A stretch of 3,823 nt of DNA. It comes from a virus. Taxonomy: Duplodnaviria > Heunggongvirae > Uroviricota > Caudoviricetes. Of this stretch, positions 1 to 3,823 are shown one piece after another (positions within the stretch are counted from its first letter, which is position 1; every line of letters starts with the position of its first letter). The notes below the pieces were generated by a model, which was not told the DNA's origin, ran no database searches, and was given only the letters and a program-made list of their open reading frames with translations. A program made the position numbers and the translations under genes. The stretch is from the IMG/VR virus record IMGVR_UViG_2698536480_000005, positions 1 through 3,823 of that record; one strand, written 5' to 3'.

Positions 1-201
1 TTACCCATTGGCGCGGCTTAAGAGCTTATTTTTGAATTCACAATGGTCACGATATAACCATCTTGCTCGCCCGTGGATAACTTTGGCTTTTGGCAGGTCG
101 CCGGACTTAATCCGGTCATAGATGAAGGTTTTACCGAAGCCAGTATCGGCCATGATGAATTTCAAATCAACCAGTGAATCAGGCTGTAGTTCGTGTTGCA
201 T
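1..201 (-). CDS. xis: Excisionase-like / AlpA-family phage DNA-binding protein (66 aa), complete
   Basis: ATG at 201..199, TAA at 3..1. SD-like GGAGA 8 nt upstream of the ATG. Protein has the HTH core typical of AlpA/Xis (MerR-like) excisionases (LVDLKFIMADTGFGKTFIYDRIKSGDLP...GRARWLYRDHCEF). Assignment from memory of the family, not a search. Confidence 0.8.
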   Translation of the reverse strand: MQHELQPDSLVDLKFIMADTGFGKTFIYDRIKSGDLPKAKVIHGRARWLYRDHCEFKNKLLSRANG

Positions 202-242
202 GAGTGCTATCTCCGAATAGGGAATCGAACCTGCAAATCAGG

Positions 243-268
243 TAATAAAAAACCGCCATCAGGCGGCT
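243..268 (-). terminator. Rho-independent terminator (minus strand)
   Basis: Minus-strand RNA AGCCGCC-UGAU-GGCGGUU forms a 7-bp GC-rich stem (one G.U) with a 4-nt loop, followed by UUUUUUAUUA (plus strand 243-252 is A-rich). The TGA stop of the 55-aa ORF (261..259) lies in the loop. Confidence 0.6.
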
Positions 269-426
269 TGGTGTTCTTTCAGTTCTTCAATTCGAATATT
301 GGTTATGTCTGCATGTGCTATCTGCGCCCATAGCATCCAGTGGTCATAGCAGTCATTGATGTTCTCTGCTTCGATAACTCTGTTGAATGGCTCTCCATTC
401 CATTCACCTGTGACTCGAAAGTGCAT
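259..426 (-). CDS. Small hypothetical protein, 55 aa (MHFRVTGEWNGEPFNRVIEAENINDCYDHWMLWAQIAHADITNIRIEELKEHQAA); not in the ORF track
   Basis: Hand-translated: ATG at 426..424, uninterrupted frame to TGA at 261..259. Strong SD GGAGA (plus 433-437 revcomp) 6 nt upstream of the ATG. Stop sits in the loop of the downstream terminator. Mixed, non-repetitive amino-acid composition. No homology evidence. Confidence 0.45.
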   Translation of the reverse strand: MHFRVTGEWNGEPFNRVIEAENINDCYDHWMLWAQIAHADITNIRIEELKEHQAA

Positions 427-437
427 TTATCATCTCC

Positions 438-464
438 ATAAAACAAAACCCGCCGTAGCGAGTT
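438..464 (-). terminator. Rho-independent terminator (minus strand) downstream of the 93-aa gene
   Basis: Minus-strand RNA AACUCGC-UACG-GCGGGUU forms a 7-bp stem (one U.G) with a UACG tetraloop, followed by UUGUUUUAU (revcomp of plus 438-446). Lies 51 nt after the stop of the 515..796 CDS. Confidence 0.5.
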
Positions 465-514
465 CAGATAAAAGAAATCCCCGCGAGTGCGAGGATAGTT
501 ACTTGTTCATATTA

Positions 515-796
515 TTAATCGTCAATGTATTTTGAGCATTGTGGGCAATCATCAATCCCACAATACGATTCATATGCATCCTTTATTGCGTCGCGGGCTT
601 CAGTAAGAGTATTGAATAAGTTGCAGCTATTATCTTTTTGATATAGGTAAGTTCCTAATTTATAAGCAGAAGAAGCATCATTTCCGCTGTCTAAAATTAC
701 ATCGTTATGGATTCTGCACCTTGCAAGAACTCCTGATCCCATAAGGGTCTGCATAGCCCATTGCTCTTGATCTTCACACAAATCATGAATGCTCAT
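515..796 (-). CDS. Hypothetical small Cys-containing protein, 93 aa (moron-like cargo gene)
   Basis: Track ORF 515..814 starts at GTG; I prefer the ATG at 796..794 because GAGAGG/GAGGTG SD lies 5-7 nt upstream. TAA at 517..515. Gene looks AT-richer than its neighbours by eye. C-terminal YCGIDDCPQC (C-x4-C-x2-C) plus three other Cys. No family recognised. Confidence 0.7.
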   Translation of the reverse strand: MSIHDLCEDQEQWAMQTLMGSGVLARCRIHNDVILDSGNDASSAYKLGTYLYQKDNSCNLFNTLTEARDAIKDAYESYCGIDDCPQCSKYIDD

Positions 797-829
797 TTCA
801 ACACCTCTCTTCACGTTTCACACACGTTA

Positions 830-859
830 AGATTAACAGTGTTTTTACATGCTTTGGAA
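830..859 (-). promoter_or_regulatory. Candidate sigma70-type promoter for the 93-aa gene (tentative)
   Basis: In the AT-rich 114-bp gap between the DUF551 stop (911) and the 93-aa gene. On the minus strand: TTCCAA (plus 854-859) - 18 nt - TAATCT (plus 830-835). Sequence-pattern only; other AT-rich hexamers nearby are alternative candidates. Confidence 0.2.
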
Positions 860-910
860 GATTTATTTTATAAAAACTCTTTTAATACAAATAGATATAA
901 TAGTTCACTA

Positions 911-1579
911 TTATAGCTCCTTTAATCGAGGCGGTTCTGGTAGAGGCATCCAGTGGGTTACCTCTTTGAGATACAGGTCTTCGCCATCACCGTCATCCCA
1001 AGTTGGATTGCCATCATTAAACCAGTCGCCATATACGCCGACCTGAGTGTTGGGGATGTTTGGTGGGTAGTTGTTTTTAAAGTCAGCTGCTAACACATAG
1101 CATTGTCGCTCTCCCATTTCTGGCATTCGCTCACTACAGCTTATCCAACCATCCGGAGTTACCGGATAGTTGCCGGGTTCTTTAATGTGCAAGCGAGGCT
1201 CACCATCTTTTGGCTCAGGCCACTGGCGCTCCATGTTGATCTTCAATTTATCTTCCATAGCAGCGGTAATTTCAGCATCGCTGATGCCAGCACGGCGCTG
1301 TGCATCCCACAACAGAAACTGCATATCAGCCCACTCGCTAAGATCGTCTGGTTCGGCTGCGGCTTCCAGTGCCTCTTTTGAGAGATGTTTCAGCGGACCA
1401 ATGGGGCCAACGCAGCCAAATGTGGAGTCAGACCATTTGGCATGCTCGTGGCGAATCTGTTCGCGTTCCAGTGATGCCAGTGCAATTCGTGCCAGTTCCA
1501 TTTGTTCGCCACGAGTAAGTCCGTTATCAAGCGGATTTTTAATGAATAATTTGATACGTTCTTTGGTTATAGCGCTCAT
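911..1579 (-). CDS. DUF551-domain phage protein, 222 aa
   Basis: Track ORF 911..1612 begins at TTG; I prefer ATG at 1579..1577, preceded by AAAGGAGAG SD and sitting 1 nt after the TGA of the upstream ea22-like gene (TGAtATG coupling). C-terminus ...YGDWFNDGNPTWDDGDGEDLYLKEVTHWMPLPEPP matches the DUF551 signature as I recall it. N-terminal ~130 aa unrecognised. Confidence 0.8.
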   Translation of the reverse strand: MSAITKERIKLFIKNPLDNGLTRGEQMELARIALASLEREQIRHEHAKWSDSTFGCVGPIGPLKHLSKEALEAAAEPDDLSEWADMQFLLWDAQRRAGISDAEITAAMEDKLKINMERQWPEPKDGEPRLHIKEPGNYPVTPDGWISCSERMPEMGERQCYVLAADFKNNYPPNIPNTQVGVYGDWFNDGNPTWDDGDGEDLYLKEVTHWMPLPEPPRLKEL

Positions 1580-1580
1580 A

Positions 1581-2132
1581 TCACTCTCCTTTGATGCGAA
1601 TGCCTGTTGCAATGCTGTTTATGATGCTGTCAGTGCATGGGGTAGAAAGCTGGGCATCTCCAGCAATTCTCATGACCTCAACATCTGCATATCGAATACC
1701 GAGGTGTATCAGACCGGCTATACCTGACTTAAGCCGAGCATTTTCCATAAACAGATCCTTTGCCCGCTGTTTTTCTGCCTCAAGCTCAACGCGCAACTTC
1801 CCTACCGTTAACGCAATCTCCTCGTTCTCCTGGTCGCGGCGTTTGATGTATTGCTGGTTTCTTTCCAGCTCATCCAGCAGCGCCAAGACGGTAGCGGGAT
1901 TGGCTGCGGCGATGAATTCAGCATTGGCCTGCTGTTCCATTTGGAAATCTTCATCGAAACCGCTTTCTGGATGCGCTCCTTCAATTCTGCAAATAGGAAT
2001 ATATCCAGCAACTTCACGATGAATTAGCGCATCATCACCATCAAATCGGCTCTCTCCATATTCGAGCGACCACTCACCACACGTTGCTTTTTCTGCCTTA
2101 GCACGCAGTGCCTGATAGTCAATCTTGCTCAC
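1581..2132 (-). CDS. ead/Ea22-like family phage protein, 183 aa
   Basis: GTG start at 2132..2130 with a strong AGGAGG SD 6 nt upstream; the GTG overlaps the TGA of the upstream gene (GTGA). N-terminus [21 protein letters not shown] and the NPATVLALLDELE motif followed by a coiled-coil segment are characteristic of Ea22-like proteins of E. coli lambdoid prophages (recalled, not searched). Confidence 0.8.
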   Translation of the reverse strand: MSKIDYQALRAKAEKATCGEWSLEYGESRFDGDDALIHREVAGYIPICRIEGAHPESGFDEDFQMEQQANAEFIAAANPATVLALLDELERNQQYIKRRDQENEEIALTVGKLRVELEAEKQRAKDLFMENARLKSGIAGLIHLGIRYADVEVMRIAGDAQLSTPCTDSIINSIATGIRIKGE

Positions 2133-2560
2133 TGGTTGCCTCCTTTGCGAAGCTGGGCGGCAAAAGCTACTGCGTGATCATGATGCTCAAGTGTGTATGC
2201 TCGCTCCGCAAACATCTCCACCCCCTGCGCCCGTACTTCAGCCAGGAAAGCATCGGTAGCTGGAGTTTCAGTAACATCATCTTCCCATTCGCTAAACTCC
2301 TCACGACAAAAGTCATTAAATTCCTTCTCAGATTGCTTAAGCGATGTATTTTCAGCAGCCATCTTCGCGCATTTAGCCTCAAGGTTATCAATCGTGATTC
2401 CAGCAGAACGACACTCCCGCAACTCCGTTTCCAGTTTTGATTCAAGCTCACCGAACTTACGCACCAGATATTCAGCGTTTGTTTCGTTAACCTTTAAATC
2501 TCGTGGGATGCATTTACCTTTCAGAAAACCATCCATCTCAATTAGTGACATTTGTTTCAT
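2129..2560 (-). CDS. Hypothetical phage early protein, 143 aa, coiled-coil rich; possibly an Ea22-like module
   Basis: ATG at 2560..2558 overlaps the TGA of the 54-aa ORF (ATGA); TGA at 2131..2129 overlaps the next GTG start. Central heptad-like segment ([50 protein letters not shown]). Weak SD (GGAG 9 nt upstream). Confidence 0.7.
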
Positions 2561-2721
2561 TTCTTCCCACTCCGCAACATCGCATTCAGATATTTGTTTT
2601 GATTCACTGATGGAAAAGAATTTCTCTTAAGCAATTCCTCTCTCGATGGCATTGGCTTTACGCGTTGGCGAATAATCATTTCTGCCGGAAGAATGCCTGG
2701 ATTGTATGCAAGTCCTCTCAT
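2557..2721 (-). CDS. Small hypothetical protein, 54 aa ([54 protein letters not shown]); not in the ORF track
   Basis: Hand-translated: ATG at 2721..2719, 17 nt after the stop of the 104-aa gene, with SD AGAGGA 7 nt upstream. TGA at 2559..2557 overlaps the ATG of the next gene (ATGA). No homology evidence. Confidence 0.45.
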
Positions 2722-2737
2722 GGTAAATTCCTCTTTG

Positions 2738-3052
2738 TTAATTTATTCGTATGCCTGCTCTTTCTTCATCGAGTTTTTTTAGCTTGTATCGCATAGCTCT
2801 CACTGAATAAATTGAGCGGCAGGTTGCAATTGCTATTTCTTCTGCGGAGAACTTACCGAAAAGTGATACTTCGGCTCTTGTCCATCGTCTTCCACGAAGT
2901 CGGCTAACAATGTCAGCGCCAATCCTTGTTGCTTTCGCCATTACTGCTTTTTCAGTCCTTTCCAGTTTTTCAGCGATAACTTCAACTGGCATTGTCGCCG
3001 CCACTTCGCGCAAGAAATCGACTTCCCATTTCTCCCATGGAGTCTTTTTCAT
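2738..3052 (-). CDS. Hypothetical protein, 104 aa, with an internal tandem repeat resembling two HTH/Myb-like units; putative DNA-binding
   Basis: ATG at 3052..3050, TAA at 2740..2738. Two related segments ([36 protein letters not shown] and [35 protein letters not shown]) with a conserved aromatic-acidic-hydrophobic pattern. SD is weak. Functional call is inference. Confidence 0.65.
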
Positions 3053-3063
3053 AGTCGATACCG

Positions 3064-3546
3064 TTATTTGATAAGAAGTGAAGGTTTCCCAACTTTGAGT
3101 TGAGCGCCAGGGATATTTATTCCTGCTTTTAGTTGGTGTTTGATTGCCAGTTTGTCGGCTTTAATTATCGTTTCAAACTCAACGTATTCAGGAGGAAGGG
3201 CGCTTGAGTCGATGATTTCTACAGTTTCTGACGGTTTGCGGATTGTTACCTGGTGAATACCTGCTCGAATATTTTTCTTGCCAACCATTTCAAGCGATGA
3301 CGCTATATATGATTTGATGCTGTCAATCTTATTTTGAATTACTGCGGCTCGCTCATTCAGCGACTTTGCCTCTTCCTTGAGGCGTTCAGCATAACCAGAT
3401 TCATTTTTAATGACGGAAAGAAGTTGCTCTATTTTATCGGTAAATTCTCCTTCCATGCCTTCTATTGTGTCAGCAATCATCTCTGGTTCTAAATCTGAAT
3501 CCATCAATTTTGCGTATTCATTGGCAATTTCATACAGTTTGCTCAC
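3064..3546 (-). CDS. Siphovirus Gp157 (Sipho_Gp157) family protein, 160 aa
   Basis: Track ORF 3064..3552 starts at TTG directly abutting a GGAGG; the GTG at 3546..3544 has that GGAGG 6 nt upstream and is the more plausible start. TAA at 3066..3064. Pattern SKLYEI...DTIEG.EGEF.DK.E....VIKNE....ERLKEE.K.L.ER...I..KID..K.Y....LE..G.K.I..G...V.IRK.P..VEI.D...LP.EYV......K.DK.AIK..LKAG..IPGA.L fits the Gp157 family as I recall it. Confidence 0.75.
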   Translation of the reverse strand: MSKLYEIANEYAKLMDSDLEPEMIADTIEGMEGEFTDKIEQLLSVIKNESGYAERLKEEAKSLNERAAVIQNKIDSIKSYIASSLEMVGKKNIRAGIHQVTIRKPSETVEIIDSSALPPEYVEFETIIKADKLAIKHQLKAGINIPGAQLKVGKPSLLIK

Positions 3547-3787
3547 TGGCAACCTCCAGTTTCGCTTTGCATTCTGCGTAAATGGCTTGTACGTTCTGCT
3601 GCAATTTCATTCCAGATGTCAGGCGATATGCTTCTGCAAAATATCGCTTCAAATCATCCATGTTTTCTGCCTGAGCCATTTCATCACAAAGAAGTTGTGC
3701 TTTTTCCATTATTTCCTGCTGGCGTTTCCGTTCATCTTCGCGGATATCTTCCTCTGATTTGTGCGGCATAACTGGTTCCTGATGCAT
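3530..3787 (-). CDS. Hypothetical phage early protein, at least 85 aa; 5' end uncertain and may extend beyond the window
   Basis: TGA at 3532..3530, 17 nt inside the start of the Gp157 gene. In-frame ATGs at 3787 and 3769 (the latter with AGGAA 5 nt upstream). The frame stays open with no stop from 3787 to the window edge at 3823. Charged, helical-looking composition. Confidence 0.5.
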   Translation of the reverse strand: MHQEPVMPHKSEEDIREDERKRQQEIMEKAQLLCDEMAQAENMDDLKRYFAEAYRLTSGMKLQQNVQAIYAECKAKLEVASEQTV

Positions 3788-3823
3788 ACCTTCATCTTCG
3801 TTAAGCAGGTGTGAACCGCCCCG

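Follow-up and report, generated by a model that had tools for sequence, protein, structure and literature searches.

Transcripts from pL become resistant to termination through N acting at nutL (gp24 in P22-like phages), and only such complexes cross the terminators of the exo-xis region. At the xis-proximal end of this region phage lambda carries a small gene, orf55 (lambdap35, NP_597778; 29118-29285), and the GenBank record of phage 434 from the 1990s (M60848) names the homologue in the same place ORF55. Three terminators of lambda, t3, t4 and t5, were predicted with ARNold (Bloch et al., 2014, PMC4195576, Table 4); the mRNA measurements in that study concerned genes upstream of orf55, and orf55 itself was left out (PMC4195576). 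The 434 record labels one terminator, 't-L4', upstream of ORF55 and another, 't'-I', before xis. A CRISPRi screen of lambda skipped orf55 for want of a PAM. A passage in an mBio paper, citing Sergueev et al. (2002), attributes to orf73, ea22, ea8.5 and orf55 a role in blocking the initiation of host replication.

The window analyzed here (the whole stretch of 3,823 nucleotides, positions 1 to 3,823 of IMG/VR record IMGVR_UViG_2698536480_000005) contains a 55-codon open reading frame in the same position. A preliminary description had presented this ORF as unlisted. The comparisons below lead us to identify it as phage lambda orf55 (lambdap35, PHROG 676), which is already catalogued: it is annotated as lambdap35/orf55 in lambda, as ORF55 in 434 and, by PGAP, as a hypothetical protein in E. 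coli RefSeq genomes. The gene and its flanking terminators already stand in the lambda literature and in GenBank, and the finding is in that respect correct but ordinary.

Gene Order and Identity of the Reading Frame

All substantial ORFs of the window lie on the minus strand and represent the leftward early region of a lambdoid or P22-like phage. From the upstream end they are as follows, with the start signal of orf55 included:

3530-3787, minus strand: RecT-like fragment
3064-3552, minus strand: Gp157/Mu Gam-like protein
2738-3052, minus strand: HTH protein
2557-2721, minus strand: DUF2737
2129-2560, minus strand: 143-aa protein
1581-2132, minus strand: Ead/Ea22-like protein
911-1612, minus strand: dATP/dGTP pyrophosphohydrolase-DUF551 fusion
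515..814, minus strand: Ea8.5-like gene, upstream neighbor of orf55 (Pfam Lambda_ea8_5, E 1.1e-15; PHROG 6325, E 7e-57)
434..437, minus strand: Shine-Dalgarno sequence GGAG, 7 nt before the ATG (426-424)
259..426, minus strand: orf55, 55 aa, ATG start
1..201, minus strand: excisionase/TorI-like gene of the HK620 hkaC type, downstream neighbor of orf55 (PHROG 66 excisionase, E 2.7e-8)

This order, from the RecT-like fragment through the Ea22-like and Ea8.5-like genes to orf55 and the xis-like gene, is that of the leftward early operon at its xis/int-proximal end, past the ea genes, and the same layout surrounds orf55 in lambda, HK140, HK022 and Klebsiella-type loci. The downstream gene is labeled excisionase or TorI in Kapi1, HK620 and Sf6. 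Among phage genomes the closest to the window are Kapi1, Gally, HK140 and 611R6, with at most 60% of the window covered by any single phage record, and this patchy coverage is typical mosaicism.

The ORF and its Shine-Dalgarno sequence (GGAG, 437-434) are present as first described. The encoded protein is 96.4% identical over 55 amino acids to the product of lambda orf55 (J02459, 29121-29285), from which it differs at two residues, and likewise to 434 ORF55. A homology search, one of the checks proposed at the outset, recovered full-length PHROG 676 (E 9.4e-40, residues 1-55 on profile positions 1-55 of 55) and 86 phage records that match the 55-aa protein; the copy in HK140 is annotated as 'similar to lambdap35', citing NP_597778. 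The lambda and 434 genes share with the window gene their length, their Shine-Dalgarno sequence and three flanking hairpins, and the GGAG is unchanged in an alignment of the window with lambda, 434 and HK140. The neighbors differ, in that the window has an Ea8.5-like gene upstream and the HK620/TorI-type excisionase downstream, whereas lambda has its own xis downstream and 434 has ORF114.

Terminator-Like Hairpins Flanking orf55

Two hairpins followed by U-tracts had been reported to bracket the ORF, and both are there. The one on the upstream side (465-438) had been taken for a single terminator; it is real, but a second hairpin in tandem with it (496-467) had been missed. The three elements, whose sequences are near-identical to those of lambda t3, t4 and t5, are:

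467..496, minus strand: distal terminator (lambda t3), stem AUCCUCGC/GCGGGGAU (496-489, 484-477), loop ACUC, U-tract UUCUUUUAU (476-468)
438..465, minus strand: proximal terminator (lambda t4), stem 465-446, GAACUCGC/GCGGGUUU, loop UACG, U-tract UGUUUUAU
243..269, minus strand: downstream terminator (lambda t5), stem 269-250, AAGCCGCC/GGCGGUUU, four-base loop UGAU (261-258), then U-run UUUAUUAC

All three have a canonical GC-rich stem and a U-tract, on the transcribed strand only. Predicted folding energies were -12.1 kcal/mol for the distal hairpin (z -4.0), -11.0 kcal/mol for the proximal hairpin (z -4.1) and -13.0 kcal/mol for the downstream hairpin (z -4.0), and none of 200 shuffled controls folded as well as the real hairpins, including the two for which such a check had been suggested. 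All three were positive in a terminator scan, and the distal hairpin aligns by position with the 434 feature t-L4. The proximal terminator was detected in 57 of the 72 unique orf55 modules, and the downstream hairpin is annotated as a rho-independent terminator in the HK140 record. The tandem hairpins come right after the TAA stop of the Ea8.5-like gene (517-515), and on this evidence orf55 follows a tandem terminator pair rather than a single terminator.

The U-tract of the proximal hairpin ends at position 438 and the Shine-Dalgarno sequence begins at 437, so the two abut and there is no room for a promoter between them, as the preliminary description had noted. No promoter-like (sigma-70-like) site was called in positions 427-500. 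At the other end of the gene, the downstream hairpin overlaps the final codons of orf55, and the TGA stop codon (261-259) makes up three of its four loop bases, which agrees with the earlier placement of the stop in the terminator loop. This hairpin sits before xis and pI in the window and in lambda, as t'-I does in 434; the hairpin labeled t'-I in 434 is nevertheless another one, which lies beyond the extra gene ORF114, and the hairpin at the stop codon of 434 ORF55 has a mismatch in its stem (GGAGG).

Evidence That orf55 Encodes a Protein

The variation at the locus was analyzed in 118 sequences (117 fetched loci and the window), which contained 45 distinct full-length coding sequences. Of the 80 sites that vary among these 45 variants, 46 are third, 24 first and 10 second codon positions, the synonymous-biased pattern that had been proposed as a test of conservation. 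The pooled Nei-Gojobori dN/dS was 0.14 in the orf55 frame; the two remaining sense frames gave 1.38 and 2.14. A value of 0.18 was obtained for the antisense frame whose wobble positions coincide with those of orf55; that frame is not open across the region, and its low value is the expected artifact of shared third positions. One and the same protein is encoded by about 30 distinct DNA variants of orf55.

Homologues extend well beyond these close relatives. Full-length members at 38-54% identity retain W9, N10, F14, E19, E21, D22, D25 and W33, and an exhaustive profile search of 1.8 billion representatives returned only 52 orf55 clusters, consistent with orf55 being a small protein family. A scan of IMG/VR yielded homologues at 96-100% identity only and served for counts of synonymous sites, not for depth. 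In a scan of genome collections the matches were mostly lambda-identical DNA in unrelated taxa, which we read as contamination with control DNA, and one distant locus was added. An AlphaFold2 model of the protein had a beta-beta-alpha-beta fold with a pLDDT of 89.2, in which residues 53-55 are disordered (pLDDT <50) and the rest is ordered.

The preliminary description had also left room for a spurious ORF, in which case the interval would act as a structured 3' UTR or yield a small RNA about 200 nt long. A discrete RNA could be bounded by the hairpins on either side, and the whole 273-nt interval folds somewhat better than its shuffles (z -2.3). No Rfam family reached its gathering score in positions 1-1000 of the window, searched at a permissive E-value, the best being STnc130 with 24 bits against a threshold of 55; ARAGORN found no tRNA, and a T-arm-like string is present. 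Against a noncoding interval stand the third-position bias and a dN/dS of 0.14 that among the sense frames is confined to that of the ORF, the protein-level homologues down to 38-54% identity, the confident fold prediction and the want of an Rfam match. We set this alternative aside on these grounds, the coding signature first among them, and regard it as scarcely credible. orf55 is in our assessment a genuine protein-coding gene under purifying selection.

A Mosaic Cassette With Terminators at Its Junctions

When the window is compared with lambda, 434 and HK140, a near-invariant block begins at the distal hairpin and runs through to the U-run that follows the stop codon, and similarity collapses on both sides of it. 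Of 5426 complete E. coli genomes, 2645 carry this cassette (about 250 bp, window positions ~245-500), in up to eight copies per genome; it is absent from phi24B (PMC8614690). Immediately past the U-run the sequence continues into at least five different contexts, including lambda xis, the HK620-type xis of the window, ORF114, an AlpA-type gene and another ORF; a methylase operon is also found downstream of the cassette. The placement of the gene next to xis/int in the preliminary description is accordingly right for the window but does not describe the cassette elsewhere. In HK620 and Sf6 no more than the final ~60 nt of orf55 are left, still followed by the terminator, pI and xis, and the Sf6 annotation marks a 'boundary sequence' whose end lies at the pI promoter and does not quite reach the downstream terminator. 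The terminators thus coincide with module junctions between phages.

The signals immediately beyond the cassette were located by mapping the HK620 features 'promoter, phage integration' (1664-1702) and 'cII protein' (1689-1701) onto the window at an offset of 1456:

208..246, minus strand: putative pI-type integration promoter, transferred from the HK620 annotation, beginning right after the terminator U-run
245-233, minus strand: putative cII-type site, TTAC-N5-TTGC in the window and TTGC-N5-TTGC in HK620

In lambda, TTGCGTGTAATTGC (the cII site of pI) comes immediately after the U-run of the hairpin over the orf55 stop, and the start of xis lies beyond it.

The coincidence of hairpins and junctions allows the hairpins to be read mainly as module-boundary or RNA-stability elements, either recombination junctions or 3' stem-loops that protect processed mRNA, instead of working terminators. 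The mosaic junctions do fall exactly at the hairpins, downstream similarity stops right after the U-run, the boundary sequence of Sf6 ends at the pI promoter, and in the E. coli group the distal hairpin is sometimes swapped for other, unrelated hairpins while its U-tract, UUUCUUUUAUCUGAAC, is kept. The same exchanges, in which the replacements are again terminator-like hairpins, also speak for termination, as do the canonical GC-rich stems with U-tracts on the transcribed strand only and the changes that preserve pairing: the commonest polymorphism of the proximal stem in the E. coli group, a G-to-A change, replaces a U-G wobble with a U-A pair. The roles of boundary and terminator are not exclusive, and a boundary or stability role would be compatible with termination; we consider it quite unlikely that the hairpins serve mainly as boundary or stability elements.

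A cassette of this kind also recalls a moron, an autonomous promoter-gene-terminator unit that is transcribed from the prophage. orf55 is patchy among related phages, has its own terminator at its end and mosaic junctions on its flanks, and is very widespread in E. coli prophages. What such a unit would need is a promoter, and the 70 nt that separate the distal hairpin from the ATG, where the proximal U-tract touches the Shine-Dalgarno sequence, contain none of the sigma-70-like kind; the gene is moreover co-oriented with the pL operon and preceded by terminators instead of a promoter. A moron with a promoter of its own was rejected for lack of that promoter, and we hold this reading to be very improbable.

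Conservation of the Stop Codon Within the Hairpin

A stop codon inside a hairpin with a U-tract was found in five divergent lineages of orf55, each with a different stem. The stems (and loops where given) are, with protein identities in brackets:

E. coli-type genes: GCCGCC / UGAU / GGCGG
Klebsiella-type genes (74% identity): CCGCC / CACUGA or AACUGA / GGCGG
Flyfo siphovirus Tbat2_3 (53%): GGGUCGCU / AGCGGCUU
'Pseudomonas phage 15b' (51%): UCGUUC / GAGCGG
Bacillales-labeled MAG (48%): AGGUCGC / GCGGCCU

In the lineage comparison the homologue of Proteus phage Brookers was the only one that did not have its stop codon in a hairpin, and a strict scan recovered the arrangement in 64 of the 72 unique modules. 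In 18 related loci, 163 sense-strand ORFs reach 50 aa or more; 14 of them had their stop inside a terminator-like hairpin and 12 of these 14 were orf55 homologues, which compares with a base rate of about 1% among the other ORFs of the same loci. The arrangement is therefore more than chance. The upstream side is less uniform: a terminator abutting the Shine-Dalgarno sequence is also present in Klebsiella-type loci and in Stx2-converting phage 86 (Stx2-86), built there from hairpins of unrelated sequence, and some copies of orf55 come directly after the preceding gene.

A ribosome near a terminator can reduce termination. This raises the question of whether the position of the stop codon is functional: a ribosome finishing orf55 would cover the 5' arm, block or melt the hairpin, and make read-through into the next module dependent on orf55 translation, as in pyrBI-type attenuators, where an ORF is likewise translated into an intrinsic terminator hairpin. 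If true, such coupling would provide a second, antiterminator-independent gate on the excision genes. In addition to the established effect of a nearby ribosome, the idea is favored by the conservation of the arrangement with different stems in five lineages, by its rarity (~1%) among neighboring ORFs and by the predicted disorder of residues 53-55, as if the terminal codons may serve the stem rather than the protein. The comparison with pyrBI-type attenuators fails at two points, in that orf55 specifies a folded, conserved protein in place of a disposable leader peptide, and in that there is no constant downstream target gene, the cassette having at least five downstream contexts, ORF114, the methylase operon and several xis types among them. 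Polymerases arriving at the hairpin would presumably already be antiterminated, which would leave little for the ribosome to do, and the overlap of stop codon and hairpin may be mere genome compaction. We therefore judge control of read-through by orf55 translation to be unlikely, and a functional role of the stop codon in melting the hairpin to be equally doubtful.

Predicted Fold and Possible Function of Orf55

Orf55 is an acidic protein of 55 aa, and its conserved surface in the model is the acidic RVIEAED..D segment at the junction of strand 2 and the helix. The protein had no matches in Pfam, NCBIfam or PADLOC, and a sequence profile search of the PDB gave chance matches only (E ~0.8). 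In a Foldseek search the top PDB matches were T7 Gp2 (4lk0_M, E 0.044, TM ~0.6) and then YkzG (4njc), none of them at E <= 0.001; a fold search of BFVD likewise gave no match at E <= 0.001, and its weak matches were mostly uncharacterized small phage proteins.

A modeling paper from 2021 likened Orf55 to three proteins, T7 Gp2, phi29 p56 and the epsilon subunit of RNA polymerase, presented a model of it docked to RNA polymerase, and equated the two critical arginines of Gp2 with N43 and R45 of Orf55 (PMC8614690). T7 Gp2 and the Gram-positive epsilon subunit (YkzG/RpoY) have a small beta-beta-alpha-beta fold that the Orf55 model may share, but no sequence homology with Orf55. Our own model partly, and weakly, reproduces the published resemblance to Gp2. 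At position 45, arginine is found in close relatives only, distant homologues having V/E/E/H/N/D/D, and position 43 is never arginine across the family; the conserved arginine pair on strand 3 by which Gp2 contacts the beta' jaw is absent from the orf55 family. The published hypothesis of a Gp2-like RNA polymerase inhibitor rests on a weak, non-specific fold match with a key residue that is not conserved.

Many small acidic phage proteins bind and inhibit host proteins, and by analogy with these our best guess is that Orf55 may do the same. RNA polymerase is the leading published candidate for such a target, though a candidate and not a conclusion.

Probable Expression Within the pL Operon

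In the gene order described above, the cassette would close the series of accessory modules in the pL operon, immediately ahead of the pI promoter and the xis/int block. Our reading of terminator activity and N-dependence draws on the sequence, on annotation and on established lambda biology; neither an antiterminator gene nor a nut site lies in the 3,823-nt window. In the Flyfo siphovirus Tbat2_3 the orf55 homologue is found ~1.1 kb downstream of a gene for an N protein, on the same strand, which is consistent with antitermination.

Most likely, the accessory genes of the antiterminated pL operon end with orf55, which the terminators silence, together with xis/int, when antitermination is lacking. 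The N or gp24 antiterminator acting at nutL would produce the resistant RNA polymerase that is alone able to read through the hairpins, and orf55, followed by xis/int, would be transcribed from pL only in lytic growth or upon induction. Unmodified polymerases, such as those from leaky or read-in transcription in a lysogen, would be halted at the hairpins, while cII-activated pI could fire independently, from its position just downstream of the last terminator. The earlier proposal of a real small protein that requires terminator read-through is upheld for the protein by the dN/dS of 0.14, the homologues to ~45% identity and the pLDDT of 89, and for the read-through it is made plausible by the lack of a promoter and by the location in the leftward early operon, which in lambdoid and P22-like phages is known to depend on N/gp24 antitermination.

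Taken as a whole, it is highly probable that the feature is lambda orf55, a real gene in a mosaic, terminator-flanked cassette that ends the pL operon and is read through by antitermination. This gating is not specific to orf55 and reflects the general logic of the pL operon. The terminator-gene-terminator layout, including the stop codon in the hairpin, is kept to a divergence of ~50% protein identity, and orf55 itself, carried by about half of the complete E. coli genomes, is under strong constraint.

Terminators and leader fold around orf55

The preliminary description placed two terminators around orf55, the 55-aa ORF of the lambda lambdap35 family at 259-426 (minus strand). A third terminator-like hairpin was found in tandem with the upstream one, and is the counterpart of the feature 't-L4' of phage 434 and of lambda t3. 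The elements considered here are as follows:

467-496, minus strand: distal terminator-like hairpin
473-478, minus strand: AUUUCU, in the U-tract of the distal terminator
432-437, minus strand: GGAGAU, the Shine-Dalgarno (SD) region of orf55
250-273, plus strand: weak terminator-like site over the downstream terminator

When the leader is folded to minimum energy, AUUUCU is predicted to pair with the SD region. This helix is weak, comprising 6 bp including G-U pairs, with only three of the six pairs left in the centroid structure. In read-through transcripts its effect could be that of a mild anti-SD element. The terminator downstream of orf55 also drew a weak terminator-like call on the plus strand in the terminator scan. 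It might be bidirectional, countering transcription that enters from the int side as well.

The pI-like promoter region

The cII-type site (233-245, minus strand) reads TTAC-N5-TTGC in the window, compared with TTGC-N5-TTGC as annotated in phage HK620, a difference of one base in the first tetramer; TTGC is kept at this position in many related loci. The spacing also differs from that of the lambda pI site, which is N6 rather than N5. Within the same region, the string GCAGGTTCGATTCCC (219-233, minus strand) resembles a tRNA T-arm; it may be left over from a former integration site, or the likeness may be due to chance. ARAGORN identified no tRNA in the window.

Start codon of the gene after the Ea22-like gene

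At 1577-1583 (minus strand), the heptamer TGATATG leaves one base between the TGA stop of the Ea22-like gene and the ATG of the next gene. This ATG is likely the true start (MSAITK...), so the listed 233-aa ORF, which begins with a TTG at 1612, is probably overextended by about 11 codons.

Distribution and truncation of orf55

orf55 DNA identical to that of lambda was present in assemblies of Shewanella, Kitasatospora, Oceanobacillus, Bradyrhizobium, Paenibacillus and others (genome-collection contigs L087-L104), often on low-coverage contigs of ~48.4 kb, and also in 'Campylobacter phage CJLB-4' (MW057783.1, 48,361 bp). These matches look like contamination with lambda control DNA rather than real hosts. 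Among E. coli prophages, a protein search recovered many orf55 fragments, either truncated or fused. In HK620 (L005, 1700-1761) and Sf6 (L002), orf55 is reduced to about its last 60 nt, and the remnant stays joined to the terminator, the pI promoter and xis. Retention of only the orf55 end in these two phages puts a mosaic junction within the gene, near window position 305.
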